Positions 1,299 to 57,900 of a stretch of 64,000 bases of DNA are shown in pieces. The stretch comes from a virus. How positions within the stretch are numbered: the first letter of the stretch is position 1; the number at the start of each line of letters is the position of its first letter. The notes under the pieces are model-generated. The model saw only the letters and a list, made by a program, of their open reading frames with translations. It was not told where the DNA came from and did not search any database. The stretch lies in IMG/VR virus record IMGVR_UViG_3300035532_000260; one strand, written 5' to 3'. The position numbers and the translations under genes were made by a program.

Positions 1299-1581
1299 TA
1301 GACGGGGAGGAAGACTCCTACCCACGATTTTTGCAATCGATTGCATTTACTTTCCCTCCCCCAAAAAATGACGGAAGCTCCTTCGGTGTGGAGGCACCGT
1401 TGGAGCTTGTTAGGACTCCCACCCGAGGGAGGCCAGGTCATCGGGGTCGAGGAGGGGTATGAACCCGCCCCGGTCGATGCCGTCTGTGGATATTCGGTAT
1501 GAGAGTATATATAAAGGAGCCGAAACACCGTGTCAAGCTCAAAACCAATTTTTTTGCAAATTATCGAAAAAAGTTCGGGAA

Positions 1582-1682
1582 GACAGATTTCCGTCACCCC
1601 CGTCGATCTGTCACCCCTCCCCCTGACAATCTGTCACCCCCCCTCCCCGACAATCTGTCACCCCCCCCATGACAAATTGGCA
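1582..1682. repeat. Iteron-like direct repeats (GACAATCTGTCACCCC, ~23-24 bp period), probable replication origin with downstream AT-rich tract
   Basis: Near-identical units at ~1602, 1625, 1649 plus degenerate units at ~1582 and 1671; internal dyad TGACA-ATC-TGTCA; AT-rich ~1683-1880 follows; lies directly upstream of the putative initiator. Confidence 0.7.
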
Positions 1683-1882
1683 TATAAAAGTAGTTAGAAA
1701 AAGAAGTGTTCTAAAAAGAAAGTTCATTGAAGAAAGATTTATGGCAAACGAGTTTGCAATAACTGGGTTTGAATCAAAAATTTATTTATGCTAGTTTATT
1801 TGTAAATCAAGGTTTGCGGACTTGTTTGTAATTCGTGCGTATCCTCCAATATGCATAAATTTATTACTGTCCTTTTTTGGTC

Positions 1883-1912
1883 TTGACTTGTTTACGATTA
1901 TGGTGGTATGTT
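1883..1912 (+). promoter_or_regulatory. Sigma70-type promoter for replication operon
   Basis: TTGACT-N18-TATGTT with extended -10 TG, 45 bp upstream of ATG 1957. Confidence 0.5.
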
Positions 1913-1956
1913 GATGCCGGATATTCGGTATTCCTAATAGCTAAGGATGTGAAATC

Positions 1957-3064: not shown

Positions 3065-3880
3065 ATGCAGACCGACGTTTTGAGAAACTGCATCCGCTTT
3101 CCTTGGGATGTTTCAAAGAGTCCTGTTAACTCAGGAAAATTCAATGATTCTGCTGTCATGGAACGGTTGGAGCATGAATCGGGATTTTCTTCCTGTTTTA
3201 TGGTTCGACCAAACGACAAGGCGCTTCCGCATGTCATGCAATCGATTGCACTTCCAACATTGATGTCGCTTCTGCACACGAAAACGCGGACGGTGACAGA
3301 ACGATCTTTGTGGAAGGGGTTGCGTCCGGATGTTCAGGATCAGATTCTTTCCCTGTATCCTGACTTTGATCGGGAAGATCATATTTTTTTGTTCCACATG
3401 GTTCAGAAGCAGAAGCAGATTTTGACCATGGCAAGTTACATGGCCGCGACGTTTGCATTTACGACGTACACGGTTCCGTTGATGATTGACTTCGACGACG
3501 TTACTCGGGCGTTGTTTTCCAGTATGAATGGCGACTTCGCTTTGTCGAATGCGATTGAGCATGCTGGTTTGTTGATTGTCTTGTACCCTTTGGGCGTTTA
3601 TCCTGGAGTCGATAAAATTTCTGGACCACTATTTACGATGTTTGCAAAGCGTTCCGATCTTGGTCGTCCTACGGTGTTTCTTGATCTTCCACAGCATGAT
3701 TTTGCGCGGAAGATTTCTGAAAACCGGGTTCCGACCAGGGAAGATTTTAAGACAATGGCGCAAATGAGTGTCGCAGGTGCAACCCGGTTTGGTTACTACC
3801 TAGCAGGACCGAACACGTATCGAAACTCTACGATTCCAATAAGGGGGCTCAATGTCGGTAGGGAAGCACTTTATTTTTAG
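3065..3880 (+). CDS. Hypothetical protein, possible degenerate DnaC/IstB-like helicase loader
   Basis: Position between initiator and DnaB; FTMFAKRSDLGRPTVF resembles the DnaC C-terminal R...PT segment; no intact Walker A seen. Confidence 0.35.
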   Translation: MQTDVLRNCIRFPWDVSKSPVNSGKFNDSAVMERLEHESGFSSCFMVRPNDKALPHVMQSIALPTLMSLLHTKTRTVTERSLWKGLRPDVQDQILSLYPDFDREDHIFLFHMVQKQKQILTMASYMAATFAFTTYTVPLMIDFDDVTRALFSSMNGDFALSNAIEHAGLLIVLYPLGVYPGVDKISGPLFTMFAKRSDLGRPTVFLDLPQHDFARKISENRVPTREDFKTMAQMSVAGATRFGYYLAGPNTYRNSTIPIRGLNVGREALYF

Positions 3881-5159
3881 CTTGCTGAGTGGCGATGACC
3901 ACGCCAAAAAAATGATCCAGGCACTTGATGTCGGGGTGGATGACGGTTATTTTTTGGACGATGCAGAACGCTATGCTTGGCAGTATATTAGAGACAGGTA
4001 TCTGGAACACGGATCTGTCCCGAGTATTTATACGGTGGAAGTCGAGACTGACCTCCGTTTCCCTGATTACGAACTACAGGATCCGTTTTCATTTTGGTTG
4101 GACGAACTCCGAAAGTACAATCGTTTAGTTTTGATGCACAATGTCGCTCATCAGTTGTCAGAGTATTTGAATGAGGGGCAGGAGCAGGATGCTTTTGATT
4201 TGATTCAGCAATCGTATTCTCGGCTTAAATTGATGCGGGAGTCGCGCCGGCAGGTGAAATCGCTTTCAGAGTTATCTGAAGAGATTTTGCAGAGGCACCA
4301 CCTGATACAGACTGGTCAGCTTCAGGAGGGTATTCCGTTTGGTATTCCGTATTTGGATCAGATTACTGGTGGCGCACAGCCCGGCAACCTGATAGCTGTC
4401 GTTGGTGAATCCGGAGCTGGGAAGACGTTTACGACTCTCCGTTTTTGTGAGGGAGCGGTTCGAGCCGGTTACAAGGCCATGTATGTAACCATGGAAATGA
4501 CCAACGCCGAAGCTGCACAGCGATCATTGGCACTTCATACCCATGTTGACGGCACGGCATTGCGTCTTGGTCGTTTGTCTCATTTTGCAATCGATTGCAT
4601 CCGGAATTCCTTGTCCCGATGGGCGGACGCGGGCTATGATGACAAATTGATTTTCGTCGAGGGACAGTTGCGTATGACAGTCGATGACATCATGGCGAAT
4701 GTGCAGGAGCACAAGCCTGATGTACTTTACATCGATGGTGCTTATATGTTGAAGTTGGCCGGTTCGCAGAATCGTCAGCGGTGGGAGACCAGCACTGAAA
4801 TCATGGAGATGGTGAAGAGGGTTGCGATCATTACTCCAATCCCTGTAATAGCTACGTTTCAGTTTGATCAGAAAGCCCGGGACAAGAAGTTGCACAATAT
4901 CATGGGTGGTCAGCATATTTCGCAGATTGCTTCATTGGTGTTGGGGTTGGAGAATGATCAAGCATTGGCGACTGCTTCGTATGAGTCCCGTGTATTCAAA
5001 ACCTTATCTTTTATGAAAGGAAGATTTGGTGAACAGGGAAAAATTAGGTTAAGATATGATATGCAGAGGACGGAAATTGAACAGGAAGAGGTTTTGATGG
5101 GTGACCGCAGGTTTACTGCAGAGCCTACTGAACCGGATATGTCTGACGAGTTTGAATAA
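3852..5159 (+). CDS. dnaB: Replicative DnaB-like helicase
   Basis: Walker A GESGAGKT, YVTMEM, Walker B LYIDGAYML, TFQF, KGRFGE. Confidence 0.92.
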   Translation: MSVGKHFIFSLLSGDDHAKKMIQALDVGVDDGYFLDDAERYAWQYIRDRYLEHGSVPSIYTVEVETDLRFPDYELQDPFSFWLDELRKYNRLVLMHNVAHQLSEYLNEGQEQDAFDLIQQSYSRLKLMRESRRQVKSLSELSEEILQRHHLIQTGQLQEGIPFGIPYLDQITGGAQPGNLIAVVGESGAGKTFTTLRFCEGAVRAGYKAMYVTMEMTNAEAAQRSLALHTHVDGTALRLGRLSHFAIDCIRNSLSRWADAGYDDKLIFVEGQLRMTVDDIMANVQEHKPDVLYIDGAYMLKLAGSQNRQRWETSTEIMEMVKRVAIITPIPVIATFQFDQKARDKKLHNIMGGQHISQIASLVLGLENDQALATASYESRVFKTLSFMKGRFGEQGKIRLRYDMQRTEIEQEEVLMGDRRFTAEPTEPDMSDEFE

Positions 5160-5693: not shown

Positions 5694-6866
5694 ATGGATA
5701 AAGCTCAGATCAAGCAGTTCTTATATGCGATTGGGGCGGAGCGTGTGACATCGGATGGCGGGTCGTGGGTGCGTGCGTCTTGCCCTCTTGCTCCCTGGTT
5801 CCATGAAGGGCATAAAGACGCGAACCCGAGCTTTGGTATTAAAGAAGGGGTTGGTGACGACTCCCCCTATTATCATTGTTTTGCTTGTGGCAGTCATGGA
5901 TCATTGATCAAGTTGTTGCACAATTTGCAATTTTTGTCTGGTGTACACCTGAAAGAGGCGTCTGCGCTATTATCGAGCGATGCTTCGTTTTTTACACAGA
6001 AGGAAGTTACTCGGGCACGTAAGCGTATTGTTGTGGACAAGTTTGCCAAGCATTCCGATAGAAAGTCCCGGGAGGTTCGTAGCAATCCTCTGGTCCCTGA
6101 TGACGTATTAGCCAAGTATCCACTGTTGGTCGATAGCGATTTAGAAGAATCAAATACGGTGATGCGTTGGTTGACACAAGTTCGTAAATTGTCTGTGCAA
6201 TCAATTGCAGACGCACAACTGCGACTGTATATGGATAGTTTTATTGGTTATCTTGGTGTGCTGTTTCCGGTGATCGGCCGGGATGGTGCCGTACGCGATT
6301 TGTGGGTGCGCATGATTCATGACAAGTCGTTTTTTAGATTGACCAAGAAATTGTCGGACTCTCCGGTTGATTATGCCGCCCCAAATCTTTGGTTTGGAGG
6401 GGAGCGTATGAATGCCGATAAGCCCGTCATTTTTGTGGAGGGGCAGATTGATGCGTTGCGGTTGGAGACGCTTGGTATAAAGAATGTAGTGGCCTGTGGT
6501 CCTGGTGGTCCTTCTTACGCGCAGATGGCGTCGATTCATGTTTCCGTTGCGTATTTTGGGTTTGATGCGGACAAAGGCGGTCGTGGTTTCGCAAAGAGGG
6601 CGTATGAAAATATGTCTGCATTGACCATGTTTTTTCTTGATTGGTCTGTTGTTGGAAAGAAAGATCCTGGTGAATTAGACAATCTGTCACAGTTTAAGCG
6701 TGTTTTTGAGAAGCGCCGTCGATTACTACGAGTACCGAAGATTGATTTAACAGGAAACCGACGAAGAAAGTCCATTCATGAAAAGAGCAGTACATTCAAA
6801 AGGCTTACGATGGGTTGTTTTTGTGATTTGACAAGCCTGTTTTTTATGCTATTATGGTGTTGTTAG
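5694..6866 (+). CDS. DNA primase (Zn-binding domain + TOPRIM)
   Basis: CPLAPWFH...HCFAC zinc motif; TOPRIM VEGQIDAL and FDADKGG; KDPGE. Confidence 0.9.
   Translation: MDKAQIKQFLYAIGAERVTSDGGSWVRASCPLAPWFHEGHKDANPSFGIKEGVGDDSPYYHCFACGSHGSLIKLLHNLQFLSGVHLKEASALLSSDASFFTQKEVTRARKRIVVDKFAKHSDRKSREVRSNPLVPDDVLAKYPLLVDSDLEESNTVMRWLTQVRKLSVQSIADAQLRLYMDSFIGYLGVLFPVIGRDGAVRDLWVRMIHDKSFFRLTKKLSDSPVDYAAPNLWFGGERMNADKPVIFVEGQIDALRLETLGIKNVVACGPGGPSYAQMASIHVSVAYFGFDADKGGRGFAKRAYENMSALTMFFLDWSVVGKKDPGELDNLSQFKRVFEKRRRLLRVPKIDLTGNRRRKSIHEKSSTFKRLTMGCFCDLTSLFFMLLWCC
6828..6855 (+). promoter_or_regulatory. Sigma70-type promoter upstream of SSB
   Basis: TTGACA-N16-TATTAT with extended -10 TG. Confidence 0.6.
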
Positions 6867-7659: not shown

Positions 7660-7680
7660 CATGTGATTTACTGGTTGATT

Positions 7681-7707
7681 GGGGTGGTTTCGGCCACCCC
7701 TATTTTT
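7681..7707 (+). terminator. Intrinsic terminator after SSB
   Basis: GGGGTGGT-TTCG-GCCACCCC followed by TATTTTT. Confidence 0.75.
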
Positions 7708-7725
7708 ATTTGGAGGAAAGGGATT

Positions 7726-10107
7726 GTGAGTTATTCTGACATCATATTGGGGACACATGCATTTCTTCGCACATCCGAATTGCGGCATTCTCCCGAGCAG
7801 CTTCGACACATTTTTTCTGTCAAATCCAAGTTTGATCCAGACAAGCTGATCCCGATTTACAAAGAATCCGGGGACTGGTTCGGTATTCCGCTTTATTACC
7901 ACAAGGATTTGAGCAAGCTTTCGTCGAACATTATTGACCGGCGCACGCTTGGGCAGGATGTGTCTTTTAGATGCACGGCTACGCTTCGGGAGAGGCAGGT
8001 ACCTGTTTATGACAAATTTATGCAATCGATTGCACGCGGGAAGACGGGATTTCTTTTGCATGCTCCTACGGGGTCGGGAAAATGTTTGGGGAAGGGTACG
8101 CCTGTTTTGATGTTTTCAGGACAAATTAAGCTTGTTGAGGATATAGTTGTCGGAGATGTTTTAATGGGTCCGGACAGCCAGCCTCGTACAGTGGTTTCTA
8201 CTACGACAGGCCGGGAAGAGATGTTTCGTGTTATTCCGACAAAGGGTGATTCTTTTACCGCGAACCGTTCTCACATTTTATCTGTTCAAATGACAGGAGC
8301 AGCGGGCGGGTTCTCTAAAGATGAGATAGTCAATCTTTCCATAAATGACTATCTTGCCAAGAGTCGCACATTTAAGCATTGTGCTAAGTTGTGGCGTACG
8401 GGTGTTGATTTTTCCGAGAAGTTTGTTCCCGGCGAACTGCCTGCATATCTTCTTGGCGTTTGGTTGGGGGATGGGTCCACTCGTTGTGCATCTATTACAA
8501 ATTCTGATCCTGAGATATTAGAGTATTTGTACAGGTATGCGGACACGCAGGGTTTGTCTGTTCGAGACACAGCTTCTAAAGATCGGTGTCCTACGTATTC
8601 TTTGTCGAATGGACATGATGGCGTTTCAAAAGGCAACCCGTTTTTATACGCTCTTCGGCATTTCAATCTGATTAGTAACAAGCATGTTCCTGATTTGTAT
8701 AAATTTACTTCTCGGGAGCGTCGATTGGATTTGTTGGCGGGTCTGCTTGATACAGATGGTTATTTAACGAGGGGTTCGGTTTATGAATTTTTGACCAAGT
8801 TTGATGTGTTGAGCGATGATGTTTTATTTTTAGCTCGTTCTTTAGGATTCGCCGCGCATAAGAAGCGAGTGACAAAAACTATCAAATCTTTAGGATTTTC
8901 TGGAGAGTATTGGCGTATTTTTATTAGCGGTGATGTTGATGAGATACCCTGCAAGGTAGTACGTAAGCAAGCAAGCCCACGAAGACAGAAAAAGAATGTA
9001 CTTCGTACTGGCTTTTTTTTGGAGTCTCTTGGAGAGGGCGATTATTACGGGTTTGAATTATCTGGGAATGACAGGCTGTTTCTGTTGGGCGATTTTACAG
9101 TTACCCATAACACCGTTATGATGATCAGTTTTATGGCGCAGATTGGAAAGACCGCTTTGATCATTGTCCCACGGTCCAGCATTATTGATCAGTGGAAGCA
9201 ACGCCTTTTGGAACACACGGATTTGACGGAAGATCAAATTGGGCTGGCACGACAATCCACCTGTGATTTTGACGGGAAGGCTGTTGTCATAGGCATGATC
9301 CATTCGTTGTCGCGGGACAAGTATGGGCAGGAGTTCAAGCGTTATTTTGGACAGGTGTGGTGGGATGAGGTGCATACGGCTGGAGCACAGGTTCTTGGTC
9401 GTACTTTGAACATGTTTCCTGCCAAATATCGGGGTGGTGCATCCGCTACGATTGATAGGGCTGATGGGTGTGCTGATGTCTATAAATTGACTCTGGCGCA
9501 GTGTCTGCTTGAGCCGAAGACGCAGCTTACTGATGTTCGCCCTACCGTATTTTTGCGTGAATATCGAACCAAGAAGCGTCATCCCTATTTACAGCGGATG
9601 ACAGATGTCAAATCTCGCCGTGGCGTGTTGATTACCTCGTTGGCTGATGATTTATCCCGCAATGTTTTGTTTGCGGTTTACATATCCAAGTTTCGGCAAT
9701 CTGGCCGGCGGGTCCTGATGCTGTCTGATCGTATCAAGCAATTGGAAACGGTTCGCAATTTACTGACCGGCCGATATGGCATGGCCCCGGGTGAAGTTGG
9801 TTTGTACATCAATAAAACTCGTAAGCTCGAAAAGGAGCGTATTGCCCGGACCTGTCCTGTGATTTTGGCCACCTACGGGATTTTTTCCATGGCGGTGGAT
9901 ATCCCCAATTTGCGTGGTTTGGTTCTTGGCACTCCCATGTCTGATGTTGAGCAGTCTATGGGGCGCATCCTCCGGATTTGTCGAGGCACGAAGGATCCGG
10001 TGATTTTGGATGTGATTGATACTGCATATCCTGATTGTATTCGGTGGGCGGGTAATCGTCAGAAGAATTACGAAAAGCAGAAATCGAAACTCGTAATGGT
10101 CAAATGA
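7726..10107 (+). CDS. SF2 (UvsW/Rad25-like) helicase containing an intein
   Basis: Walker A APTGSGK|T split by intein, DEVH, SAT motif, QSMGRILR; start moved to GTG 7726 behind RBS (ORF-track start overlaps the terminator). Confidence 0.9.
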   Translation: MSYSDIILGTHAFLRTSELRHSPEQLRHIFSVKSKFDPDKLIPIYKESGDWFGIPLYYHKDLSKLSSNIIDRRTLGQDVSFRCTATLRERQVPVYDKFMQSIARGKTGFLLHAPTGSGKCLGKGTPVLMFSGQIKLVEDIVVGDVLMGPDSQPRTVVSTTTGREEMFRVIPTKGDSFTANRSHILSVQMTGAAGGFSKDEIVNLSINDYLAKSRTFKHCAKLWRTGVDFSEKFVPGELPAYLLGVWLGDGSTRCASITNSDPEILEYLYRYADTQGLSVRDTASKDRCPTYSLSNGHDGVSKGNPFLYALRHFNLISNKHVPDLYKFTSRERRLDLLAGLLDTDGYLTRGSVYEFLTKFDVLSDDVLFLARSLGFAAHKKRVTKTIKSLGFSGEYWRIFISGDVDEIPCKVVRKQASPRRQKKNVLRTGFFLESLGEGDYYGFELSGNDRLFLLGDFTVTHNTVMMISFMAQIGKTALIIVPRSSIIDQWKQRLLEHTDLTEDQIGLARQSTCDFDGKAVVIGMIHSLSRDKYGQEFKRYFGQVWWDEVHTAGAQVLGRTLNMFPAKYRGGASATIDRADGCADVYKLTLAQCLLEPKTQLTDVRPTVFLREYRTKKRHPYLQRMTDVKSRRGVLITSLADDLSRNVLFAVYISKFRQSGRRVLMLSDRIKQLETVRNLLTGRYGMAPGEVGLYINKTRKLEKERIARTCPVILATYGIFSMAVDIPNLRGLVLGTPMSDVEQSMGRILRICRGTKDPVILDVIDTAYPDCIRWAGNRQKNYEKQKSKLVMVK
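8083..9111 (+). mobile_element. Intein with LAGLIDADG homing endonuclease (343 aa) in helicase P-loop
   Basis: Starts CLGKGTPVLM, ends FLLGDFTVTHN, +1 residue Thr; endonuclease motifs YLLGVWLGDG and LLAGLLDTDG. Confidence 0.93.
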
Positions 10108-10902: not shown

Positions 10903-12212
10903 TGGCCGGGCTCAATCAGACATTGAAGGCAAAGGCCAAGGGTGGGACCGTTTTGCACGGGTTGTCCGAGTGGCGGGAGAAGCAAAGCAACATTGTTGAT
11001 TTTCAGCGGATTCCGACCGGCATTTTTCCGTTTGATTACGCCGTGGGTGGTGGGATCCCCTGCAATGTGATTACTCAGTTTTATGGGCCGGAGCAGTCGG
11101 GGAAATCGACGTTGAGCTACATTGCCGCGCGTGGTTTGTCTCGTTTTTGTATGCGCTGTATGCAACCGATTGCACTCTGCCAGTGTGAGAAGGATGCTTT
11201 CGGATTATACTGTCCCACATGCGGGAAGCCTGCTGGCGAGTGCAAGCACGCATCCCTGCCAATTGAATTGTGTAACAAGTGTGGGAAGTCCCGTATCGAT
11301 TGTACGTGTGGCACCCAGTTGATCCAAAAAACGTTTCTGTGTCATTTTGAAGGCATGCCTCCTGATGATTTGTATTTCCGGACATTGCAGTATGATGCCG
11401 ACCAGCATCTGGTTGTCGGGCTTCCTGAAGTTGGGGAGGAAGGGTGTGAGATGATTGAAGCAGCCGCCAAGTCAGACGATTGCGGATTGATTATCGTGGA
11501 TAGTTTGGCGGGTATTGTTCCCCGTGCAGAGCTTGACGCTGCATACGATGACGCCCTGGTTGCCAATCAGGCCAGATTGATTGCCCGTTTATTCCGCAGA
11601 CTGTCCGTGATTTTAGTAAACGAATATCGTCGGGGTCATCGGGTGGGTGTTATTTTTATCAATCAGCTTCGTGCCAAGATTGGGGCGGGGAAGTGGGAGT
11701 CGAATGAGACGACACCGGGTGGGTGGGCATCCCGCCACGGTTACCGGTTGTCTGTCCGGGTGAGCCAGTTGTCCAGTGAGGACAAAGACACGACGAACCA
11801 GTTGAAGAATGCTTCTCGGTTTTCCGCTTCTTTGCTCGGCCCGAGTTCCAAACAGCAGATGCTTATTTTGGCGGGGAAGGCCGAGTATAAAATTGTCATG
11901 CAGGACTTTGATGGGTACCAGGCGGGTGCTATCATGGATGCCAATGCGATTACCAATTTTGGCAAGAAGACCGGTTTGCTTGATAAGGGATCGAAGTATT
12001 ATGAGCTGAAGACTACAGACATGCAATTTCGTGTATTGTCTGATTTGGAGAACATGTTGAAGGCTGGCGAATACGCCGATCCCGAAACTGGTGAGGTTTC
12101 TGCCATGCCGTTTCCCGATGATGTTGCCAGATTTATTATTATGAAGCGGGCGAAGGAACAGGCAACACGGGCATTGTTGACATCTCGGGCCGCCAAGTTG
12201 TCAAGCATGTAG
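10902..12212 (+). CDS. recA: RecA/UvsX-like recombinase with Cys-rich insertion
   Basis: RIPTGIFPFDYAVGGGIP, Walker A GPEQSGKST, Walker B IIVDSLAG, IFINQLR. Confidence 0.88.
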   Translation: MAGLNQTLKAKAKGGTVLHGLSEWREKQSNIVDFQRIPTGIFPFDYAVGGGIPCNVITQFYGPEQSGKSTLSYIAARGLSRFCMRCMQPIALCQCEKDAFGLYCPTCGKPAGECKHASLPIELCNKCGKSRIDCTCGTQLIQKTFLCHFEGMPPDDLYFRTLQYDADQHLVVGLPEVGEEGCEMIEAAAKSDDCGLIIVDSLAGIVPRAELDAAYDDALVANQARLIARLFRRLSVILVNEYRRGHRVGVIFINQLRAKIGAGKWESNETTPGGWASRHGYRLSVRVSQLSSEDKDTTNQLKNASRFSASLLGPSSKQQMLILAGKAEYKIVMQDFDGYQAGAIMDANAITNFGKKTGLLDKGSKYYELKTTDMQFRVLSDLENMLKAGEYADPETGEVSAMPFPDDVARFIIMKRAKEQATRALLTSRAAKLSSM

Positions 12213-13671: not shown

Positions 13672-13730
13672 AAGCTTCTGTGGGCTTTCCTATATAAAAC
13701 CCCTCGGGGATGTTGTTCAAAGGCCTTAAA
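13672..13730. repeat. 59-bp element copy 1 (AAGCTTCTG..TTTCC.ATATAAAACCCCTCGGGG(A)TGTTGTTCAAAGGCCTTAAA)
   Basis: Near-identical to 46512..46570; intergenic. Confidence 0.85.
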
Positions 13731-13797
13731 AAGCCATTTTGGAATTAGTCAATCACGTTTTTATATGGTGCAATCAATTGCACAGGAGGCATGTCGT

Positions 13798-16554
13798 ATG
13801 GGAAAGTCGAGTCCTATGGTTCGGTTATCAAAAAAACAGGTGAAGAAGAAAATCCAGTTTATTCGGGATTACATGGCCGCAGGGAATGCAGCGACGGGAT
13901 CCGTGCTGGATGCAAATGCCAATGTCAATCAGAAAAATATCAGCACGTTGCACAGTGAATTGAATAAAGATGTTAACATTCAGGTAGGCCGCCGTCTCTT
14001 GTATGAAAAGATTATCGAGTTATTTGATAAAGAATTGGCGGACGAATATATTCGGCAATTGGAAAGTCATGAGATTTACTGCCACGATGAAACAACAATT
14101 TACCCGTATTGCGTCTCGATTTCCATGTATCCTTTTTTGAAAAATGGGACCCGTGATTTGGGTGGAGAGTCGTTGGCCCCAAAGCATTTTGAGTCGTATT
14201 GTGGCAGTTTTATCAACATGATTTATGCCATTTCGTCACAGTACGCCGGCGCGGTAGCTACTGTGGAGTTCTTAATGCACATGGATTATTTCGCTCGGAA
14301 GGATTTTGGACCAAATTACTTGGAGACGAACGAGCGCGATATCAATGATGGATTGCAACATGTTGTTTACAGCTTGAATCAGCCTGCAGCGGCCCGGGGG
14401 TATCAGTGTGTTAAAGAAACTACGGAACTGTTGACCCCTGATGGCTATAAGAAATTGGGTGACCTGAAAGTTGGGGATGTATGCTATACGTGGAAGGATG
14501 GAAAGCTTTTCAAGGAAAAGATTCAACGATTGAATACATATCAATTTGATGGGGAGTTGATGGAGTTTTCCGGACAGAATTACAAGCAGACGGTAACCCC
14601 CAATCATCGAGTTCTTTACAAGAAACCGAATTGTCCAGGTGAATATGCAATCAAAGAAGCGCATGAAGTGTTTGGCCATTCCAAGCTTTCGCTTCCGATT
14701 TCTGCTGACAACGACTTTGAAGATTATCCGATTTCAGACGCAATGCTTGAGTTGGTTGTCTTTGTTCTTACCGAAGGTAGTATTGATAGGAGCAGGCTAC
14801 AGATTTACAAATCCGCGAATCGGTGGGGACATGAACGTCTTAAAGAATTGTTGGAAATCACCGGGACAGGTTATACATGTTCTGAGTTTTCCAGTGAATT
14901 TGGGTTTGTTGATGTGTTCCGGATTTCTTCTGTTGATTCTGCCACGTTGATGCATTTGGTTCATGGAACGAAGAAAGAATTGCCTTTCTTTTTTTCCATG
15001 TTGAGCCAGCGTCAGGCCAAGCTTGTTATTGAAGCATGGAGTCGGCTTGATGGCATGTGGCAGGATGGCAGGCCTCGTCTGCAATGTGATAATGAATTGA
15101 TTGCGGATCAGCTTCAGCATGTTGCGTTTCTTGCGGGCTATGGTAGCACTCTTGAACATGTTGAATATTCTCGCATTGATGGTTCTGGTTCTGTTCCCGG
15201 GCTGTATGTGAAGACCTTTAGGCGGGATGCGAAGCGCGTGTCCTCGTATAATCTTGTGCCCTATAAAGGGACTGTCTGGTGTCCTACTACCGAGACGGGT
15301 GTTGTTATTTTCCGGGAGGAGGGTACGCCGTACATTTCAGGCAATTCTGTTTTCTGGAACATTTCGATTTTTGACCGACCGTATTTTGAATCGATTTTTG
15401 AAGGGTTTGTTTATCCTGGGACGGATGACCGGCCGGATTATGACAGCATTGCCAAGTTGCAGAAGTATTTCATGCAGTGGTTTAACAAAGAGCGGGAGCG
15501 TAGTTTGCTTACGTATCCCGTAGTGACTGCGGCGATTTTGAATAAAGAGGATCGTTCGGGCTTTGAAGATCCGGAAATGGTTGATCTTGTTTGCAAGGAA
15601 TTGGCGGCAGGAAACAGTTTTTTCGTGTATCAATCGGAAAGTGCAGACTCGTTGAGTTCCTGTTGTAGATTAAAGAACAAATTTATTGAAAAGCCTGAGT
15701 TTTCCTACACGCTTGGGGCGGGTGGTGTTTCAACCGGTTCTGTAAATGTGATCACGACAAACATTTCTCGGCTGGTGCAGGATGGCCGGGATTTGCGGGA
15801 AGAGATCCGGAAGGTCCATAAGTATCAGGTTGCGTACAGATCGATTATTGAGGATTTTTTGCATGCGAAGATGCTTCCGGCCTATGATGCTGGGTATATT
15901 ACGCTTGATAAACAGTATTCGACAATCGGGATTATCGGCCTTGTTGAGGCTGCTGAATATCTTGGGATCACGCCCGGCAATACTGAAGAGTACAAGAATT
16001 TTCTCGTTTCGATTTTACAACCTATTTACGAAGAGAACCGAAAGGCGACCAAGAAATACGGGATTCCGTTCAATACTGAAATGGTTCCCGGTGAGTCTCT
16101 TGGGGTGAAGTTTGCCGGTTGGGATCGTAAGGCTGGTTATTCTGTTCCCAGGGATTGTTACAATTCGTATTTTTACGTTGTTGAGGACGCATCGACAGAT
16201 ATTTACGACAAGTTCTGTCTGCATGGGGAGGATGTTGTTTCATATCTTGATGGTGGAAGTGCTTTGCATCTTAATTTGGAAGAGCATTTGTCAGAAGAAG
16301 GGTACAAGAATCTGTTGAAGTTGGCCATGCGCACCGGTTGCAATTATTGGACGACCAATGTTTTGTCCACATGTTGTGAGGATTGCGGGTACATTGATAA
16401 AAAGACTCGTACGCAATGCCAGAAATGCGGGTCCACGAATATCTCGCATGCCACCCGGGTGATTGGTTATCTGAAAAAGATTTCTGCATTTTCAGAAGAT
16501 CGGCAAAAAGAGCATGCAAGAAGGAGTTACCATGCATCTATCGGAACAGTTTGA
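13798..16554 (+). CDS. nrdD: Anaerobic (class III) ribonucleoside-triphosphate reductase with intein
   Basis: QYAGAVA, NQPAAARGYQ|SVFWN, LSSCCRL, GSVNVIT, EMVPGES, CEDC..CQKC Zn site, TRVIGYL glycyl-radical motif; ORF open from 13765. Confidence 0.95.
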   Translation: MGKSSPMVRLSKKQVKKKIQFIRDYMAAGNAATGSVLDANANVNQKNISTLHSELNKDVNIQVGRRLLYEKIIELFDKELADEYIRQLESHEIYCHDETTIYPYCVSISMYPFLKNGTRDLGGESLAPKHFESYCGSFINMIYAISSQYAGAVATVEFLMHMDYFARKDFGPNYLETNERDINDGLQHVVYSLNQPAAARGYQCVKETTELLTPDGYKKLGDLKVGDVCYTWKDGKLFKEKIQRLNTYQFDGELMEFSGQNYKQTVTPNHRVLYKKPNCPGEYAIKEAHEVFGHSKLSLPISADNDFEDYPISDAMLELVVFVLTEGSIDRSRLQIYKSANRWGHERLKELLEITGTGYTCSEFSSEFGFVDVFRISSVDSATLMHLVHGTKKELPFFFSMLSQRQAKLVIEAWSRLDGMWQDGRPRLQCDNELIADQLQHVAFLAGYGSTLEHVEYSRIDGSGSVPGLYVKTFRRDAKRVSSYNLVPYKGTVWCPTTETGVVIFREEGTPYISGNSVFWNISIFDRPYFESIFEGFVYPGTDDRPDYDSIAKLQKYFMQWFNKERERSLLTYPVVTAAILNKEDRSGFEDPEMVDLVCKELAAGNSFFVYQSESADSLSSCCRLKNKFIEKPEFSYTLGAGGVSTGSVNVITTNISRLVQDGRDLREEIRKVHKYQVAYRSIIEDFLHAKMLPAYDAGYITLDKQYSTIGIIGLVEAAEYLGITPGNTEEYKNFLVSILQPIYEENRKATKKYGIPFNTEMVPGESLGVKFAGWDRKAGYSVPRDCYNSYFYVVEDASTDIYDKFCLHGEDVVSYLDGGSALHLNLEEHLSEEGYKNLLKLAMRTGCNYWTTNVLSTCCEDCGYIDKKTRTQCQKCGSTNISHATRVIGYLKKISAFSEDRQKEHARRSYHASIGTV
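14407..15345 (+). mobile_element. Intein (313 aa) in NrdD with degenerate LAGLIDADG-like domain
   Basis: Starts CVKETTELLT, block B VTPNHRV, block F VWCPTT, ends YISGN with +1 Ser; removal restores RGYQSVFWN. Confidence 0.9.
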
Positions 16555-22080: not shown

Positions 22081-22097
22081 TTTTATGAAAAAATTTC

Positions 22098-41329: not shown

Positions 41330-41368
41330 GTGCAATCGATTGCACACAAAATGGAGGTGGAGTTGGTT

Positions 41369-43418: not shown

Positions 43419-43831
43419 AATATGAAATGATTCGATGCGATGTCTGCGGGAAAACGGCCCCTGCTTCCCGGGTAGGCGATGAGTGGGATTTTTGGTAGAA
43501 TTGAAATACCCTGGGAATAATATATGGTGTCATACCCACGCTGTCCCGTATGTATGTCCTGAGTGTCGGGAAGCGATGGCGGAGCGGCTGATCAATGCCC
43601 TTGATGACACATTACGAAATTATGGATACGGGATGGTTCCCGTTGCCAATTGATGTGCAATCGATTGCACTATTTTCGGCCTCCGGCAAGAAGAAAGTTA
43701 TGGGAAATCAGCACTTTAACTTTGGAAGCCTGTTTCTCATTCAAAAATCTTCGGGCGAAATTCTCAATTTCTTAATTGAATTTGGCCTCAATTTTGGGGA
43801 GCATCTTTTCAAAAAAATGGGAGGGCGGTGT

Positions 43832-44032
43832 ATGCAACGACGACGAATGTTAGCACATGGATACAATGCGTTTACCGGTGTTGTTCCTTCTGACGATCAG
43901 ATTGACAGGTACAATCGGATTCAGGAAAGAATCAATTCGTTTATCGATGCGGGCATGCCTGTATCGGAGGCGTTGTTGAATGAGTCGCATGTATTTTTTA
44001 CGATGATCACGCATCCCGGATGGTCGGGGTAG
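43832..44032 (+). CDS. Small hypothetical protein
   Basis: RBS GGAGGG; ends 3 bp before a palindrome. Confidence 0.5.
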   Translation: MQRRRMLAHGYNAFTGVVPSDDQIDRYNRIQERINSFIDAGMPVSEALLNESHVFFTMITHPGWSG

Positions 44033-44367
44033 GTGTGCAATCGATTGCATTTTTTGAAGAGTCGCACACATATCAGTTTCGGCATTGTACGTTGAAGATT
44101 TATCGAAAGCGTGGAGGGCGGGAGCCTTGGGGATTTACGACTGTTTATCAAGGACGGTTGTACCGCAGTCCTGATATGCATGTCAGTAAAGAAAATGCCT
44201 TGCATCAGGGGCGTTTATATGCCAAAAGTTTGATAGAACAAAGTGGGAAGGACAAATGAAAATTACGGTGCATGACATGATTACGGGACGGGTGGTCCTT
44301 GCCAAGGCGGTAGTTGGGTCGGTGATTTGGTGTAGCGTTGCAGTATGAAAACACAAGGAGTGATTTG

Positions 44368-44808: not shown

Positions 44809-44904
44809 TTTGATGCAATCGATTGCACGTGTCTTGATTTTTCTGCTCACTTTGAAAGTATGAATGTATGGTTATTTTTATTTACTAACGGGAGGTTCAG
44901 TACA

Positions 44905-45848: not shown

Positions 45849-45879
45849 ATGCAATCGATTGCACGAAAGGGAGAGGGTG

Positions 45880-46511: not shown

Positions 46512-46570
46512 AAGCTTCTGCAAGTATTTCCCATATAAAACCCCTCGGGGTGTTGTTCAAAGGCCTTAAA
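46512..46570. repeat. 59-bp element copy 2
   Basis: Matches 13672..13730. Confidence 0.85.
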
Positions 46571-46644
46571 CAGGCGCACACAGCCTCGTTTATTGTAAAC
46601 AAATCAAAAGGTTATGGGTGCAATCGATTGCAGTGGAGGAATGC

Positions 46645-47357: not shown

Positions 47358-47377
47358 AAAAACTTTGAAAAAAAATG

Positions 47378-47466
47378 AAAAACTTCTTGCATTCTTTTTG
47401 GTCTCCAGCAAGAAAGAAGTTAAGGGAAATAAGGCACTTAACTTCAAAACGGAGGAAAAAGAAATG
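47378..47466 (+). promoter_or_regulatory. Promoter-stem-loop-RBS cassette (copy C)
   Basis: Near-identical to copies A and B up to the ATG. Confidence 0.85.
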
Positions 47467-47697: not shown

Positions 47698-47738
47698 CCC
47701 CCTCTTAGGCGAAATGTTTGAGAGGGGTATTTTTTTTC
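47698..47738 (+). terminator. Intrinsic terminator
   Basis: CCCCTCT...AGAGGGG + TATTTTTTT. Confidence 0.7.
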
Positions 47739-47793
47739 GATTGGAGCATGTGTGATGCAATCGATTGCACAAACAATTTACAAGGAGCAGTGA

Positions 47794-48399: not shown

Positions 48400-48457
48400 G
48401 TGCAATCGATTGCACAAATGCCCTTGACGTTTTTCTTGTTGTGACAATTACGAGGGC

Positions 48458-51477: not shown

Positions 51478-51512
51478 TCCGGTGCAATCGATTGCACTGA
51501 TGGAGAATTACC

Positions 51513-53416: not shown

Positions 53417-54385
53417 ATGCTAGCATCTCCGAGTGTAGAAAACTATTTGTATGGCAAAGGTGAGTTGTTCTTCAAGAAAGATGGTGAGTCCAATTTTGTT
53501 CATCTCGGCAACGCTCCCGCATTTGGGATCAATGTTGCGTTGGAGAAAACCGAGCATTATTCCAGTATGTCTGGGACCAAAGAGAAGGATTTGTCCAAGG
53601 TAATTCAGAAGACTGCGACATCTTCGATCACGCTGGAAGAATTTTCGTCCTCTAACCTGAATATCGCTTTTTTGGGGGATGGTGTTTCTGCCACGGTTCA
53701 GTCGGCCGGAAACAGCGATAGTGTTACCGTATCGGTTGTTGATGATGAGTATATTGAACTTGGGAAGATGGGTGTATTTATCACCAAGTTGTTTCATGCT
53801 TCGGTGACTGACGGCCCTTTTTCTGTTGGTGAAACGGTTACTGGTGGAACGTCTTCCGCCACAGGCGAGGTTGCCTTCGTTGGTAGCGGTTATTTGGATG
53901 TGATCAATGTTTCTGGCACGTTTGAGACAAACGAGGCAATTACTGGTGGGACGTCTCTCGGCTCTGCCTCTTTGGTCGCCGTAAATGAGGAGCCTGATGT
54001 TGTCGTCACGGACTCCGAGGGTACGACTCGTTATGTTTTGGGCACGGATTATCGGTTGTCTGCTCCTGCCGGTATGCTCATGGTCATGTCTTCTGGTTCC
54101 ATTGATGCCGCGTCTGTCAAAGTTTCGTTTGATTATCCTGAAAAGAATATGCAGTCGATCAATGCGTTGGCGAATTCCTCTTGTCAGGGTCACCTTCGGT
54201 TTGTTGGCAACCCTGATATTGGGCCGAAGATGATCATTGATGTGTGGAAGGCATCATTGACTATTTCTGGGGAAGTGGCATTTATAGGTGAAGATGCATC
54301 TTCGTTTCCCATCGAGGGTGAATTTTTGTCTGATGCCGTGAACCACCCGAGTTGCCCGATTTTCAAGGTAGTTCGTTTCGATTAA
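53417..54385 (+). CDS. Major tail (tube) protein
   Basis: YLYGKGELF, HLGNAP.F, EH.SSM.G, NP.GP; no sheath gene nearby. Confidence 0.8.
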   Translation: MLASPSVENYLYGKGELFFKKDGESNFVHLGNAPAFGINVALEKTEHYSSMSGTKEKDLSKVIQKTATSSITLEEFSSSNLNIAFLGDGVSATVQSAGNSDSVTVSVVDDEYIELGKMGVFITKLFHASVTDGPFSVGETVTGGTSSATGEVAFVGSGYLDVINVSGTFETNEAITGGTSLGSASLVAVNEEPDVVVTDSEGTTRYVLGTDYRLSAPAGMLMVMSSGSIDAASVKVSFDYPEKNMQSINALANSSCQGHLRFVGNPDIGPKMIIDVWKASLTISGEVAFIGEDASSFPIEGEFLSDAVNHPSCPIFKVVRFD

Positions 54386-54460
54386 CCGACAATGCACTGC
54401 GGAGGAGGGTAGGTGGTTGCTGCCTCCGCAGTGCAATCAATTGCACACAAGAGGCAAGGT

Positions 54461-54847
54461 ATGCGGAAGAATAAAGTTTTTAAGATCGATGACAAGGAAT
54501 TTACGATGAAGGAGTTGCGTATTACTGACATCATCGAGCTTGGTGACGTATTGAAAGATTTTTCCCTGGAGGGATTTGTAGATCGCATTGCGGAGTTTTT
54601 ACCCCGGGTGACTGACATTACTTTTTCCGACATGGTTGAAATGGCCCCGAGCGAACTGGAGACGGTATATGAGACGTTTAAGGAGGTAAACGCCTCTTTT
54701 TTCTCGATAGGGAAAAGGCTGGGAATGGCGGATCTTCTCGCACAGATCAAGAAGTCGATGATTGCAGATTTTTCGCAGGCCTTTTCCGTCTCATTGAAGC
54801 AGGCCACAGCCACGCATGGGAATACGGGTATTCCGTCTATACAATAG
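54461..54847 (+). CDS. Tail assembly chaperone (gpG-like) with probable -1 frameshift extension ending at 54957
   Basis: EVNASFF; heptamer T-TTT-TTC at 54697..54703; the -1 frame stays open, encoding LIEAGHSHAWEYGYS, until TGA 54955..54957. Confidence 0.7.
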   Translation: MRKNKVFKIDDKEFTMKELRITDIIELGDVLKDFSLEGFVDRIAEFLPRVTDITFSDMVEMAPSELETVYETFKEVNASFFSIGKRLGMADLLAQIKKSMIADFSQAFSVSLKQATATHGNTGIPSIQ

Positions 54848-54953
54848 CATTGGAAGAGCATGCATCATTGGAGCATGAGCGTCTTCGTGTTTTTGCAACC
54901 GCATTTCGTGTAGCACAGAATGCAACCAATGAAGATTGGAGTAAATTTATCTC

Positions 54954-57900
54954 ATGAGCGCAAGCAGAACCCTAGAGATTATTGTACGTGCCCGGGATGC
55001 TGCATCTGGCGTTCTGAATAATTTTGGGCGGGCTTTGAAGCAGACGTCTGCAAATTTGGAAGCCGCTCGTATTCATTACAAAGCGTTAGGTGACGCGGCT
55101 GTACAAGCGGGCCAGCAAATGATTAAAACAGGAGCTGTTCTTGGAGCAGCTTCTGTTTTTCCTATTAAGAAAGCCGCAGACTTTGAACATACCATGTCCA
55201 AAGTCACTGCCACCATGAAGGGGGCGGGTGCGGCTTATTCTGTTTTGGCGAGTGCTGCCCGAGAACAGGGACGTACGACGCAATATACGGCGGAAGAGGC
55301 GGCCCAGGCCCTTTATTATCTTGGCCTGTCCGGGATGGATGCGTCTGACGCTTTGAAAGCTTTACCTCGTACATTGGAATTGGCTGCTGCAGGTGAGATT
55401 GAGTTAGGTGAAGCGGCCGACATCGCCACCAACGTATTGACGCAAATGGGTTTGGCTGTTGAGAAGCTTAGTTCTGTCAATGACGCCATGGCGTACACAG
55501 CTTCCAATTCAAATACCGATGTTCGTGAATTGGGTGAGGCGTTCAAGTATGCCGGCCCGTTTGCCAGTTCTCTTGGTGTTGATATTTCTGATTTGTCTAG
55601 CATGTTGGGCGTTTTGGCGAATGCTGGTTTTCGTTCAACGATTGCTGGTAATAATATCAAGCGAATGCTGGTCAAATTGTTGGATCCCTCGGAAGCTGCC
55701 CAGCAGGCGTTGAAGCGACTCAACGTCGAGATTTTGGATGAAGAAGGGAAGCTGCGTAATGTCACAGATATTTTTGTCGATTTGCGCGAGGCGGGGATGG
55801 ATGCCAACGACGCGCTGGCTTTATTTGGCTCGTATGCTGTTTCTGCTGCCACCAAATTGGTGGATGGTGCAGATAAGGTCAAATCGTTTGCGCATAGTAT
55901 CGACGGTGCGAAGGGTGCGGCCGAAGAGATGGCCGGGATTCGTTTCGATGATACGACTGGTGACTTGTTTAAGTTGACTTCTGCATTGGATGGTCTTGGC
56001 CAGTCTATTGCAGATCCCCTGCTCCCGTCTGTTCGTGCTGTATTGTCTGGCCTGACTTCTATGGTGTCGTCTCTTCGGGAATTGAATGAGGCGTCGGGTG
56101 GGGCCGGGTCTGTTTTATTGGCTTTGTCCGCGTCGCTTGCCGGCCTGTTGGCGGTGATTGGGTCTTTGACTTTGGCGTTTGGTGGTTTAATGCGACTGTT
56201 TGCCGCAGGAATGGGCACGGTTACCCTATTTGGTACACGATTAGCGGGGGCCACTGCTGCTGTTCGGGCTTTTGGTGCTGCCATTACGGCTGTTGCGGGC
56301 TCTGTAACGGCTTTTGGTATCGCATTGAATGCGGGGCTTGGTATTGTTGTTCTTTGGTCGGGAAGCAAGGTTTATGGTGCGATTAAGGCGTTGTGGGAAT
56401 GGCGGGACGCCGCGAATGCCGCTGCAACCGCCCAGGAGCGTTTGAACACAACGCTTGAAAAGAACATGAACAAGTTTAAGGACTATGCTGCATACGAGCC
56501 CCCTGAATTGACTGGAGAGGAGACCCTGGACGATTTGGAGACGCAGAGAGATGCGATACGCAAGGCATTGGCGTATGCTATTTCTTACAGGGCCTCGCTT
56601 GAGCAGAAGTCTAAGGAAACGAATTGGATGGGGGCGGCCACCGACGATGCCAAAAATGCGAAGAAGGCATTGGTGGATGTTATCAAGCATTTACAAATTC
56701 TTCGGAATGGACTGACAGATGTCTCTGGTGCAATAGCCAAACTGCAGGAAGATGCGAGCAAGCCTGTTATTGTTCCCAAAGATTTGGTGACTTCTTCTCC
56801 CATGTTTGACATGATATCTGAGCTAGAACTGTTCAAGGAAAAGTCTCAGTTAGAATTGGACATGCTTGAGCAGAGTTATCAGGATGGTGTAGTTTCTCTC
56901 GACACTTATTTGAAAGAACGCTCCAAGCTTGTTTCTGCCGAGTTTGATAAAGAGATTGCGACAAACAGGGAAATGCTTCAGGCCATGTCTTATGACAAGA
57001 AGGGAGCGTATATTCCTGTCAAGAATCAACAGGAATATGAAGAGCGTGCTGCCCTCAAAAATAAGATTGTTTCTTTGGAGATTCAGAAACAAGCACAATT
57101 GCGAGAAGTGCATCAATCCGGTGTTGAGGCGCGTGATCGGATCGAGGACGTTGCAGCAGAAAATTCTCTTGCACGATCTAAGGCTGCGGTTAAGGAAGAA
57201 TTGGATATTTTAGATAACGCTCTTGACGACCGTGAAATATTGTGGGAAGAGTATCTTGACCGCAAATACGAACTCAAAGAAGCGTCAATTTCTGACGAGA
57301 TGCAATCAATTGCACTCGAACTTGATAATTTTAAGGGAACACTCGATCAGCGATTGGCCCTTGAGCAGAAGTATTACGAAAAGAGTGCTGAACTCCGAGC
57401 CTTACATGGTGAGAAGGACGAAGAAGAGGAAGACTTTGAGAAAAAGGATGAAGAGAACGGAAATTCTATTTTGTCCCTTATCCGTGGCGTAAAGATGGAA
57501 GGAACGGATGACCCCGAAGCCTTGTTTGACTTGGAAATGGAAGCAACGCGGGCGGAGTATGATGAAAAGCTGAAAATGCTAGAAGAGTATGGCGCGTCAA
57601 AATCCGAGTTACAAGAATTCCAGGCTGCGGCCGAGATGGCTTTGGATAAGAAAGTTGCTGACCATTCCAAGGAAGTTTTTCAATCGCGGGTGGAGAGCGT
57701 ACGTTCTTTGTTTGGGAGTACAGCTTCTGCGTTACAGGAATTTTATCAGGCATTTGGTTCCCAGAGTAAAGAGGCGTTTGCTGCGTATCAGGCGTTCGCA
57801 ATAGCGGAAACGATCATCTCCACGTATGAGAGCGCTCAAAAAGCCTATAGCTCCATGGCATCGATCCCCCATGTTGGGCCTGTACTCGGAGCGGCGGCCG

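Follow-up and report, generated by a model that had tools for sequence, protein, structure and literature searches.

A stretch of 64,000 nucleotides from a virus (IMG/VR record IMGVR_UViG_3300035532_000260; the whole of this stretch is referred to below as the window) carries an iterated 14-bp palindrome, TGCAATCGATTGCA, in 20 perfect and 9 one-mismatch copies between positions 1332 and 57314. These copies are maintained by selection and evenly spaced, and such arrays, which we call lattices, occur in distantly related phages of 60-134 kb with 38-63% GC. The lattice tracks a gene pair, RuvC and the gene at 22085-22957, and the product of the latter, a member of phrog_17202, has a predicted helix-turn-helix (HTH) DNA-binding core of the ParB/KorB type. 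We propose that the palindromes are operator-like sites for this protein, the candidate reader, which would act on them as a KorB-like global regulator or as a roadblock, a reading to which we give an even chance.

Rescanning the window reproduced exactly the copy number and the coordinates given in an earlier note on this DNA. The excess over chance that the note had claimed was equally clear against dinucleotide-preserving shuffles, in which the palindrome occurred 0.02 times on average and at most once, vs 29 copies observed. The base 5' of the palindrome is A or G in 27 of the 29 copies, the base 3' of it is mostly C or T, and the extended form is RTGCAATCGATTGCAY. Among the one-mismatch copies, the central TCGA is changed to TCAA in seven of nine, and the change is a transition at the central CpG in eight of nine. 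On the coding strand, the variant centres in the window are TCAA in seven cases vs TTGA in one; the bias is the opposite in the related record G007 (six TTGA, one TCAA), and Stenotrophomonas phage DLP3 (loci L509-L513) has 17 TCAA vs 7 TTGA. Synonymous constraint accounts for only part of this strand asymmetry.

Nearly all copies located well within genes share the frame xTG-CAA-TCG-ATT-GCA, and those at 3237, 6196, 8021, 17155, 24819, 27062 and 57301 are read as (M/V)QSIA. Translation thus agreed with the reading frames given in the earlier note, including AIDC in DnaB (4586) and AINC in RuvC (19639), apart from two one-mismatch copies that deviate, MQPIA at 11161 and VQLIA at 29074. Because this frame is the mildest of the three readings for the protein, its choice looks like minimisation of protein cost and is not itself a signal. 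The DNA word itself, as the note had claimed, is under strong selection: the sites at 3237 and 8021 are present as identical 14-mers at orthologous codons of the provirus G008, in proteins that are 24-48% identical, and one orthologue pair is only 24% identical overall, yet VMQSIALPT is retained. Most other positions have moved, with the density kept. The G007 orthologue of the SF2 helicase has a one-mismatch site at 44339 (residue 57; this position is not aligned to 8021).

Judged from the flanking sequences, about half of the window copies occupy the interval from a stop codon to the following Shine-Dalgarno (SD) sequence; at these junctions, the stop codon is often 0-6 nt upstream of the site, and the start codon is 8-25 nt downstream. 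By a crude gene call, at least 14 of the 29 sites are outside genes, and only about 15% of the window is non-coding. The arrangement of stop codon, site and SD sequence is present in every lattice lineage. The coefficient of variation of the gaps between sites in the window is 0.48 when variants are included (p<0.0002) and 0.85 for perfect copies only, compared to 0.95 under the null model. The one-mismatch copies occupy gaps in the spacing, and since even spacing appears only when they are counted, these variants are working members of the array. Across genomes, the coefficient was 0.38-0.77 in 12 of 13, with about 0.95 expected for random placement; the value for G006 was 0.89, with perfect sites only counted. 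The density in each phage is roughly one site per 2-4 kb, and it is maintained while individual positions turn over between relatives. A sugar-modification cluster (23-31 kb) that is absent from the syntenic G008 holds three coding sites at 2.0-2.3 kb intervals and is flanked by two further sites, at 22977 and 31353. No clustering of sites at the genome ends was seen in the terminal-repeat genomes.

Scanning IMG/VR with the 14-mer yielded many multi-copy viral contigs. Whole records carry 14-35 copies with one mismatch allowed: G006 (134 kb), G007 (99 kb, 55% GC), G008 (a 77-kb provirus, 63% GC), G009 (105 kb) and G010 (38% GC, only 55% complete). G008 shows synteny with the window, the proteins being 30-63% identical; a replication module is common to the window, G007 and G006, and G009 shares modules only with G006. 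Most terminase relatives are without any iterated palindrome. Other relatives carry sister words, namely TGCAACTAGTTGCA in G013 (14 copies), TGCAA-RCGY-TTGCA in G015 (30 copies), TGAACCCGGGTTCA in G011 (16 copies), TRCAATCGATTGYA in G028 (34 copies), TGAAATCGATTTCA in L450-457, TGCAAC-GG/CC-GTTGCA in L449 and TGCAGG-NN-CCTGCA in L485, and the lattices of DLP3 and Rhodobacter phage RcZahn have a CA centre, with no CpG. The general form across the clade is TGCA-N6-TGCA, with the half-site TG(C/A)AAY.

The sister words are informative with respect to the mode of recognition. Asymmetric centres occur in both orientations relative to transcription (11 ACGC and 10 GCGT in G015; 4 GG and 2 CC in L449), and the two bases at the centre vary freely in Rhizobium phage L338C, with the arms fixed. 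This points to recognition of double-stranded DNA with two-fold symmetry, by a reader of half-sites of about 6 bp, and disfavours both an RNA hairpin signal and the resemblance to a LacI-family operator (TGnAAnCGnTTnCA, with a conserved central CG) that had been pointed out in the earlier note. The latter resemblance is coincidental, because sister lattices carry CTAG, TTAA, CA or any dinucleotide at the centre; no LacI-type gene was found among the window open reading frames (ORFs) scanned, a scan that did not cover every ORF. Different palindromes were seen in three terminase relatives whose fetched stretch lacks the candidate gene, L283, L308 and G012 (TGACA-N3-TGTCA in five copies, TTGCC-N3-GGCAA in four and ACGACTAGTCGT in about seven), and other readers may exist for these.

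Every complete lattice genome (G006, G007, G011, G013, G015 and G028) carries the candidate reader gene, and the lattice-free relatives G014, G019, G020, G022 and G029 lack it. Among 81 terminase-relative loci, a lattice was found in all four with the gene vs 6 of the 77 without it. Among 41 sampled Reyranella-family genomes, the gene occurs only in the two genomes with the motif; as these two are close relatives, this match is effectively one event. The gene sits between the replication and packaging modules; RuvC adjoins it directly in G006, G007, G011, G013 and three cultured phages, and one gene separates the two in the window, G008 and DLP3. Homologues were found by tblastn in 47 cultured-phage records. 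The order RecA, exonuclease, RuvC, reader gene is seen in Vibrio phage V-YDF132 (UOX39973.1), L338C (L338C_074), RcZahn (gp66) and DLP3 (DLP3_062, with the one extra gene before the homologue). These four phages were picked only for a reader gene next to RuvC, and the prediction of a lattice was made beforehand. All four have 28-48 TGCA-N6-TGCA sites, and the reversed control gives 0-2. Where relatives lack the gene, there are 0.8-4.7 sites per 100 kb, roughly the chance level.

The candidate reader family comprises about 3,900 representatives in a profile search. An AlphaFold model built from 64 sequences is all-helical, with a predicted local distance difference test score (pLDDT) of 83, and the core is predicted to resemble the DNA-binding domains of ParB, KorB and SopB: the top 50 matches include ParB-parS, KorB (two entries), SopB (two entries) and P1 ParB. 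Structural neighbours in the ESM Atlas are DUF3102 clusters and a cluster with ParB_N, KorB and HTH_ParB; a Foldseek search of the model against PDB gave no match. Pfam finds no ParB_N (PF02195, CTPase) domain in the 22085-22957 product. One family member weakly matches DUF3102 in Pfam, with sub-threshold family-search matches in G006 and G015, and the family profile searched against PDB sequences and Pfam returned only a sub-threshold DUF3102 match.

Proteins and half-sites also vary together. Members with the motif GW-T/S-K pair with TGCAAT half-sites (base 3 is C in 244 and A in 32), and members with GW-A-K pair with TGAAAT half-sites (A in 33, C in 3); since the tree allows only one or two switches, this covariation is suggestive, not statistical. 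In the model, a helix begins at the variable residue, not far past the putative recognition helix, and this second helix may be comparable to the HTH-adjacent helix that bears specificity residues in ParB and Noc (PMC7383237). In the two groups that carry the gene but no lattice, the motifs are altered, with GWTH in L437 and a changed recognition helix in G016.

What binding would do is suggested by promoters in some of the relatives. A site lies within 12 nt of TTGAC in 12 of 32 cases in V-YDF132, 11 of 47 in L338C and 5 of 19 in G011, compared to a background of 2-3%; the offsets are mostly 7-9 nt in V-YDF132 and L338C (in L338C, the range is mostly 6-12 nt) and 1-10 nt in G011. In V-YDF132, 15 of 33 sites are wholly within the unannotated 7.2% of the genome (deposited annotation, with gaps summed by hand), and 11 of the sites in unannotated regions head a repeated cassette that consists of the site, 7-8 nt, TTGACA, a 17-nt spacer, a -10 box (e.g., CATAAT or GACAAT), a leader of about 35 nt, AGTCAGGAGACG and ATG. 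As the site centre is thereby near -50 of consensus host-type promoters, KorB-like control of transcription is indicated. RcZahn has been reported to be virulent and DLP3 to be temperate, possibly a phagemid; the lattice is therefore a core function that is not specific to lysogeny.

Taken as a mechanism, the palindromes would be operator-like sites for a phage-encoded homodimeric DNA-binding protein, most likely the 22085-22957 product with its predicted HTH core and no CTPase domain. Sites would be kept at intervals of about 2-4 kb, in the gaps between stop codons and ribosome-binding sites where possible, and would elsewhere fall within genes, in the frame that costs the protein least, (M/V)QSIA. 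The bound protein would act like KorB, as one regulator over the whole one-directional gene train, both beside promoters, from sites 7-9 bp upstream of -35 boxes as in the Vibrio and Rhizobium relatives, and through evenly spaced distal sites or roadblocks at gene junctions.

It should be noted that several observations weigh against this proposal. The co-occurrence of gene and lattice is confounded by phylogeny, as both may simply mark one clade, and the T/A covariation is based on the one or two evolutionary switches mentioned above. The same 14-mer goes with proteins that are only 22% identical, and the closer protein of G011 is paired with another word. A weak lattice of about 7 sites (CGACTAGTCG) is seen in G012, which has no reader gene; conversely, G016 and the L437 group carry the gene without a lattice. 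The lattices of G009 and G010 are on incomplete contigs, in which the gene is not scorable, and its apparent lack in G009 is uninformative because the contig ends where G006 has the block of the large terminase (TerL), the reader gene and RuvC. This contig end also explains why BLAST and iterated profiles found no small protein common to the first six lattice genomes. As to regulation, no sigma-70-type -35 box lies beside the sites in the window, G008, G007, DLP3 and RcZahn, in which sites are mainly at stop/SD junctions or inside genes, so the regulatory reading leans on the other lineages. A sigma-70 promoter scan of 36-55 kb of the window gave a count no higher than that of shuffles and no consistent link to sites. 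A promoter-like TTGTTA-17-TAGAAT can be read 3' of the site at 20429.

The fact that most window sites have no adjoining promoter is compatible with another role of the same protein, namely, that of a structural organiser of the phage chromosome, which would compact, protect or mark the phage DNA or prepare branched concatemers for packaging and take no part in transcription. We regard this as a serious alternative, although on balance an improbable one. It would fit the even spacing with turnover of positions at constant density, the sites written into newly acquired cargo genes, the location of the reader gene between RuvC and the block of ParB_N, small terminase (TerS) and TerL genes, and the long Lys/Ala-rich and acidic tails of some homologues. 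Conversely, transcription is indicated by the constant distance of 7-9 nt between sites and -35 boxes in three lineages, sites are not clustered at the ends of terminal-repeat genomes, and the candidate reader lacks any CTPase or spreading domain. The function shared by lattices is not segregation, because ParA, which the earlier note had listed among possible readers, was found only in the window and in none of 12 related records; partition of the ParB-parS type was rejected as a common context on the same grounds, and the sites are dispersed evenly, not few and clustered. The other candidates of the note were two HTH proteins, encoded at 10104 and 22178, and the ParB-fold protein encoded at 31378. 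The protein at 22178, which is the 22085-22957 product, emerged as the best of these, and the one at 10104 has no homologue in five lattice phages by BLAST. That the 31378 protein reads the sites, loading as at parS and spreading in a CTP-dependent manner, we consider quite unlikely. It has a ParB_N domain, homologues in G008, G007, G010, G011 and G013, and the same gene order (ParB-like, TerS, TerL) in DLP3 and V-YDF132, and a palindrome ends 2 nt before the SD sequence of its gene (tAGGAGG), with which the stop codon directly after this site, at 31353, overlaps. Nevertheless, it is missing from the complete lattice phage G006 (Pfam and iterated profile), and the lattice-free G014 has a homologue. 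The PHROG family of the 31378 protein bears the annotation ParB-like nuclease, and a DNA-binding HTH domain was not detected in this protein.

The remaining explanations dispense with this type of reader. It is highly improbable, in our judgement, that a host protein reads the sites and that phages copy a host repeat or the operator of a host regulon. A scan of 185,000 genomes with the 16-mer gave mostly chance single matches; Flagellimonas and Mucilaginibacter have just 2-3 copies, and only Reyranella stood out, with 8-10 copies in a prophage with a TerL homologue and 11 and 19 more on the chromosomes of two genomes, seven of them at orthologous positions in two species and several in housekeeping genes. 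These chromosomal copies, together with the fit of the motif to the LacI-type pattern, favour a host reader. Among the 41 Reyranella-family genomes, however, 36 have no copy and three have one, and the two with many (19 and 29) are exactly those with the prophage and the candidate gene; this sample, which represents the host of a relative and not that of the window itself, identifies the word as a phage feature with regard to the possibility, raised in the earlier note, of equal frequency in the host. Furthermore, the chromosomal density outside the prophage is about 1 per 300-500 kb vs 1 per 2-4 kb in phages, the centres of sister phages differ in accord with phage lineages, and the hosts of lattice phages span Vibrio, Rhizobium, Rhodobacter and Stenotrophomonas. 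It is similarly hard to believe that the element is an RNA hairpin between cistrons (5-bp stem, 4-nt loop) that serves as a processing, stabilising or translation signal: the sites directly after stop codons and 1-25 nt before SD sequences would suit it, as would the location of G009 sites and of the 22977 core within longer hairpins with variable outer stems, whereas the palindromy is perfect, including the loop, in five independent lineages, the centres behave as described above, and many copies are inside genes and some upstream of promoters. Least probable of all, we think, is that there is no reader and that the word is a by-product of methylation and repair bias, as proposed for cyanobacterial HIP1, or a short homology for module exchange. 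Transitions at the central CpG in the window variants, the 4-bp restriction-type palindromes at several centres, and the sites that bound the window-specific sugar cluster are in its favour. Yet repair bias could hardly give rise to an evenly spaced word of 14 bp, the CA centre of DLP3 and RcZahn has no CpG, G008 has no site at the junction that corresponds to the cluster, and evolvability alone would not keep 14 of 14 bases at orthologous codons.

In the two Reyranella lysogens, G001 (e.g., L351, L352, L356 and L358) and G004 (L417-L435), which have 11-19 copies outside the prophage, several chromosomal copies are in frame (xQSIA) in housekeeping genes, including gluconokinase-like and Nudix-box genes. 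A host regulon was rejected as the genes beside the chromosomal sites are heterogeneous (LysR, AraC, MarR, autotransporter, DegT). Mobile mini-insertions were rejected as the host coding sites are substitutions in conserved motifs (PWL... of the gluconokinase-like gene, the Nudix box), not 15-bp insertions. Integrase or lysogeny as a common context was dismissed given that, among lattice phages, a tyrosine integrase occurs only in G008. Sites for sigma-54, primase, Chi, RuvC-cruciform, IHF and serine recombinase were also considered and fail on spacing, symmetry, length or genes that do not track the lattice.

The window belongs to a tailed phage, with all genes on the + strand and a strongly positive GC skew. 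It encodes DnaB, a DnaG-like primase, an SF2 helicase with an intein, a RecA-like protein, a Cas4-like exonuclease, NrdD, a sigma factor, thymidylate kinase, RuvC, an AAA ATPase, the sugar-modification cluster, the ParB_N protein, TerL, an XkdF protease and capsid and tail genes, with ParA and a small serine resolvase at the left end. Its DNA is present in oil-field metagenomes, and megablast of 20 kb against 50,697 phage records found no close cultured relative. The sites and the genes discussed above are listed in the table.

Table. Palindrome sites of the window and the genes considered in connection with them (site positions are those of the 14-mer).
Feature	Position	Strand	Context
Site, perfect	1332-1345		intergenic, after resolvase gene
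Site, perfect	3237-3250		inside ORF 3065-3880 (VMQSIALPT); same codons in G008 at 4440
Site, perfect	4586-4599		inside DnaB-like helicase, frame AIDC
Site, TCAA variant	6196-6209		inside primase, frame VQSIA
Site, perfect	8021-8034		inside SF2 helicase (FMQSIARG); position conserved in G008 (9321)
Site, one mismatch	11161-11174		inside RecA-like gene
Site, TCAA variant	13769-13782		immediately 5' of AGGAGG and likely NrdD start
Site, perfect	17155-17168		5' part of sigma-factor ORF
RuvC-like resolvase gene	19076-19660	+	conserved upstream neighbour of candidate reader gene
Site, TCAA variant	19639-19652		last codons of RuvC-like gene
Site, TCAA variant	20429-20442		begins directly after TGA stop, upstream of AAA ATPase gene
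Candidate reader F22085 (phrog_17202)	22085-22957	+	start possibly ATG 22178
Predicted ParB/KorB-type HTH DNA-binding core	F22085 residues ~39-175		
Site, perfect	22977-22990		within ~40-bp extended palindrome 22964-23003; 19 nt past candidate reader stop
Site, perfect	24819-24832		inside DegT aminotransferase gene, sugar cluster
Site, perfect	27062-27075		inside methyltransferase gene, sugar cluster
Site, TTGA variant	29074-29087		inside WbqC-like gene, sugar cluster
Site, perfect	31353-31366		last codons (VQSIA, stop) of ORF 29864-31369
ParB_N-domain protein	31378-32163	+	precedes TerS, TerL; correlates poorly with lattice
Site, TCAA variant	34959-34972		junction 3' of large terminase gene
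Site, perfect	37261-37274		junction; SD and ATG within 20 nt downstream
Site, perfect	37748-37761		directly after TAA stop, followed by TAA; SD and ATG 20 nt downstream
Site, perfect	41331-41344		junction: stop, site, SD, ATG
Site, perfect	43656-43669		right arm in place of TTGCAC box of repeated ~60-nt cassette
Site, perfect	44036-44049		3 nt past stop of ORF 43595-44032
Site, perfect	44814-44827		directly after TGA stop
Site, perfect	45850-45863		junction: stop, site, SD, ATG
Site, perfect	46619-46632		immediately 5' of GGAGG and ATG
Site, perfect	47756-47769		after TGA stop and strong terminator-like hairpin 47699-47727
Site, perfect	48401-48414		upstream of XkdF-type protease gene; same junction has site in G008 (62290) and V-YDF132 (25108)
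Site, perfect	51483-51496		junction, head-gene block
Site, TCAA variant	54432-54445		5' edge of ORF 54413-54847; ATG 15 nt downstream
Site, TCAA variant	57301-57314		inside tape-measure gene, frame MQSIA

Several other features of the window were recorded. The intein of the SF2 helicase gene (7663-10107) has a Hint domain and a LAGLIDADG homing endonuclease at residues ~141-411, and the G008 orthologue is about 300 residues shorter. The NrdD ORF (13765-16554) encodes 929 aa, of which the Pfam match, split into two stretches, spans no more than residues 528-923; an insertion or a second intein may be contained in the long N-terminal part. The sugar-modification cluster (22986-31369, about 8.4 kb; two WbqC genes, DegT, methyltransferase, PIG-L and others) is inserted between the candidate reader and ParB_N genes relative to G008 (23.6-24.4 kb), and V-YDF132 and DLP3 have related glycosyltransferase and deacetylase genes at this location. 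A cassette of about 97 nt with A-rich GAAAAAAC repeats, a CTTGCAC/T box, a hairpin and GGAGG is found at 36872-36968, 41821-41917 and 47368-47464 with 80-92% identity, and further copies are at 19662-19715, 42143-42182 and 43665-43722; it may act as a promoter recognised by the sigma factor that the phage itself encodes. At 1598-1668, between the resolvase and replication genes and beside ParA, three iteron-like repeats of 24 nt (CCCCGNCNATCTGTCACCCC...) in tandem may represent an origin or a plasmid-type centromere. Within ORF 38357-38983, a 180-nt unit occurs in three overlapping copies offset by 90 nt (38525-38884; 90-nt period, 73-77% identity). An element of about 40 nt with a CCCCTCGGGG hairpin lies just 5' of the sites at 13769 and 46619 (13689-13733 and 46530-46573), with a weaker third copy at 60747.

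KorB operators adjoin -35 boxes in some cases and have distal or intragenic positions in others. The KorB-OB system of the IncP plasmid RK2 (PDB 1r71, 8qa8) is similar to the proposed one in that a ParB-family HTH protein reads a short palindrome repeated around the replicon. It differs in that the candidate reader has no ParB_N/CTPase domain, the replicon here is a phage and not a plasmid, and the sites are denser and more evenly spaced; a KorA-like partner is not known here, and no search for KorA was made. Cluster O mycobacteriophages carry 17-bp dyad repeats, TGTTCGGNNNCCGAACA (34 copies in Corndog), and likewise have more than 30 dyad-symmetric copies spread through a genome of about 70 kb, partly in coding sequence: about one third are intergenic, one third near 5' ends and one third coding (PMC4351075). 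It is not obvious that these phages are temperate, and their genes include those for a ParB-like protein and an AAA ATPase; a dimeric protein that binds DNA is predicted by the authors, according to whom the function of the repeats is unknown (PMC4351075). The sequence and the 7-N3-7 architecture are different from those described here, the phage group and the hosts are unrelated, and no reader was proposed; by organism name, there was no Mycobacterium phage among the 47 tblastn matches, and no profile search was made. The stoperators of Cluster A phages, bound by repressors of the L5 gp71 type, are comparable in number (about 30 sites per ~50 kb, mostly in short intergenic gaps) and in having a lineage-specific consensus that co-evolves with the phage's own protein (PMC9283540, PMC6550527). 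Unlike the palindromes in this work, stoperators are asymmetric, oriented in the direction of transcription and bound by the monomeric immunity repressor of temperate phages, whereas the lattice is also present in the reportedly virulent RcZahn.

The Noc-binding sites (NBS) and parS are palindromes of about 16 bp that are read by ParB-type HTH proteins, and NBS are chromosome-wide; specificity shifts in ParB and Noc through few residues in the HTH and the adjacent helix (PMC7383237), which parallels the GW-T/A-K covariation in the candidate family. In contrast to the candidate reader, Noc and ParB are cellular CTPases with a ParB_N domain, not phage proteins; parS sites are few and near the origin, and Noc binds the membrane. 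The HIP1 element of cyanobacteria (GCGATCGC) is also an iterated palindrome in coding and non-coding DNA; it is 8 bp long, host-wide and far denser, whereas the sampled host chromosomes here are mostly without the word and the spacing is regular. The lattice system is not described in the searchable literature, the searched 14-mers occur in no relevant paper, and the papers on DLP3 and RcZahn do not mention the repeats. A NAR 2026 paper on hypermodification in a 'DLP3' concerns a different, Acinetobacter phage and is irrelevant.

Arrays of at least 30 dyad repeats in phages were thus already known, without explanation. Here, a far wider clade of phages is seen to conserve the lattice as a trait under selection, with a simple general form and lineage-specific spellings, and the candidate reader is present in the cultured phages V-YDF132, DLP3/DLP5, RcZahn and L338C. 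More tentatively, the CTPase-less family with a predicted ParB-type DNA-binding domain (phrog_17202, DUF3102-like, about 3,900 representatives) and the TGCA-N6-TGCA lattice could together constitute an undescribed chromosome-management system in a large clade of 60-134 kb siphophages, both virulent and temperate, with specificity that diversifies as in ParB and Noc and with cognate sites that accumulate in host housekeeping genes in long-term lysogens; in this full form, we hold the proposal to be possible, if doubtful. Should the reader be confirmed, the ParB/KorB DNA-binding fold would extend to CTPase-less proteins that act genome-wide in viruses, the lineages would offer a natural series of matched protein-site pairs for studying the evolution of specificity, and the presence of a phage word in the essential genes of the lysogens themselves would need explaining.

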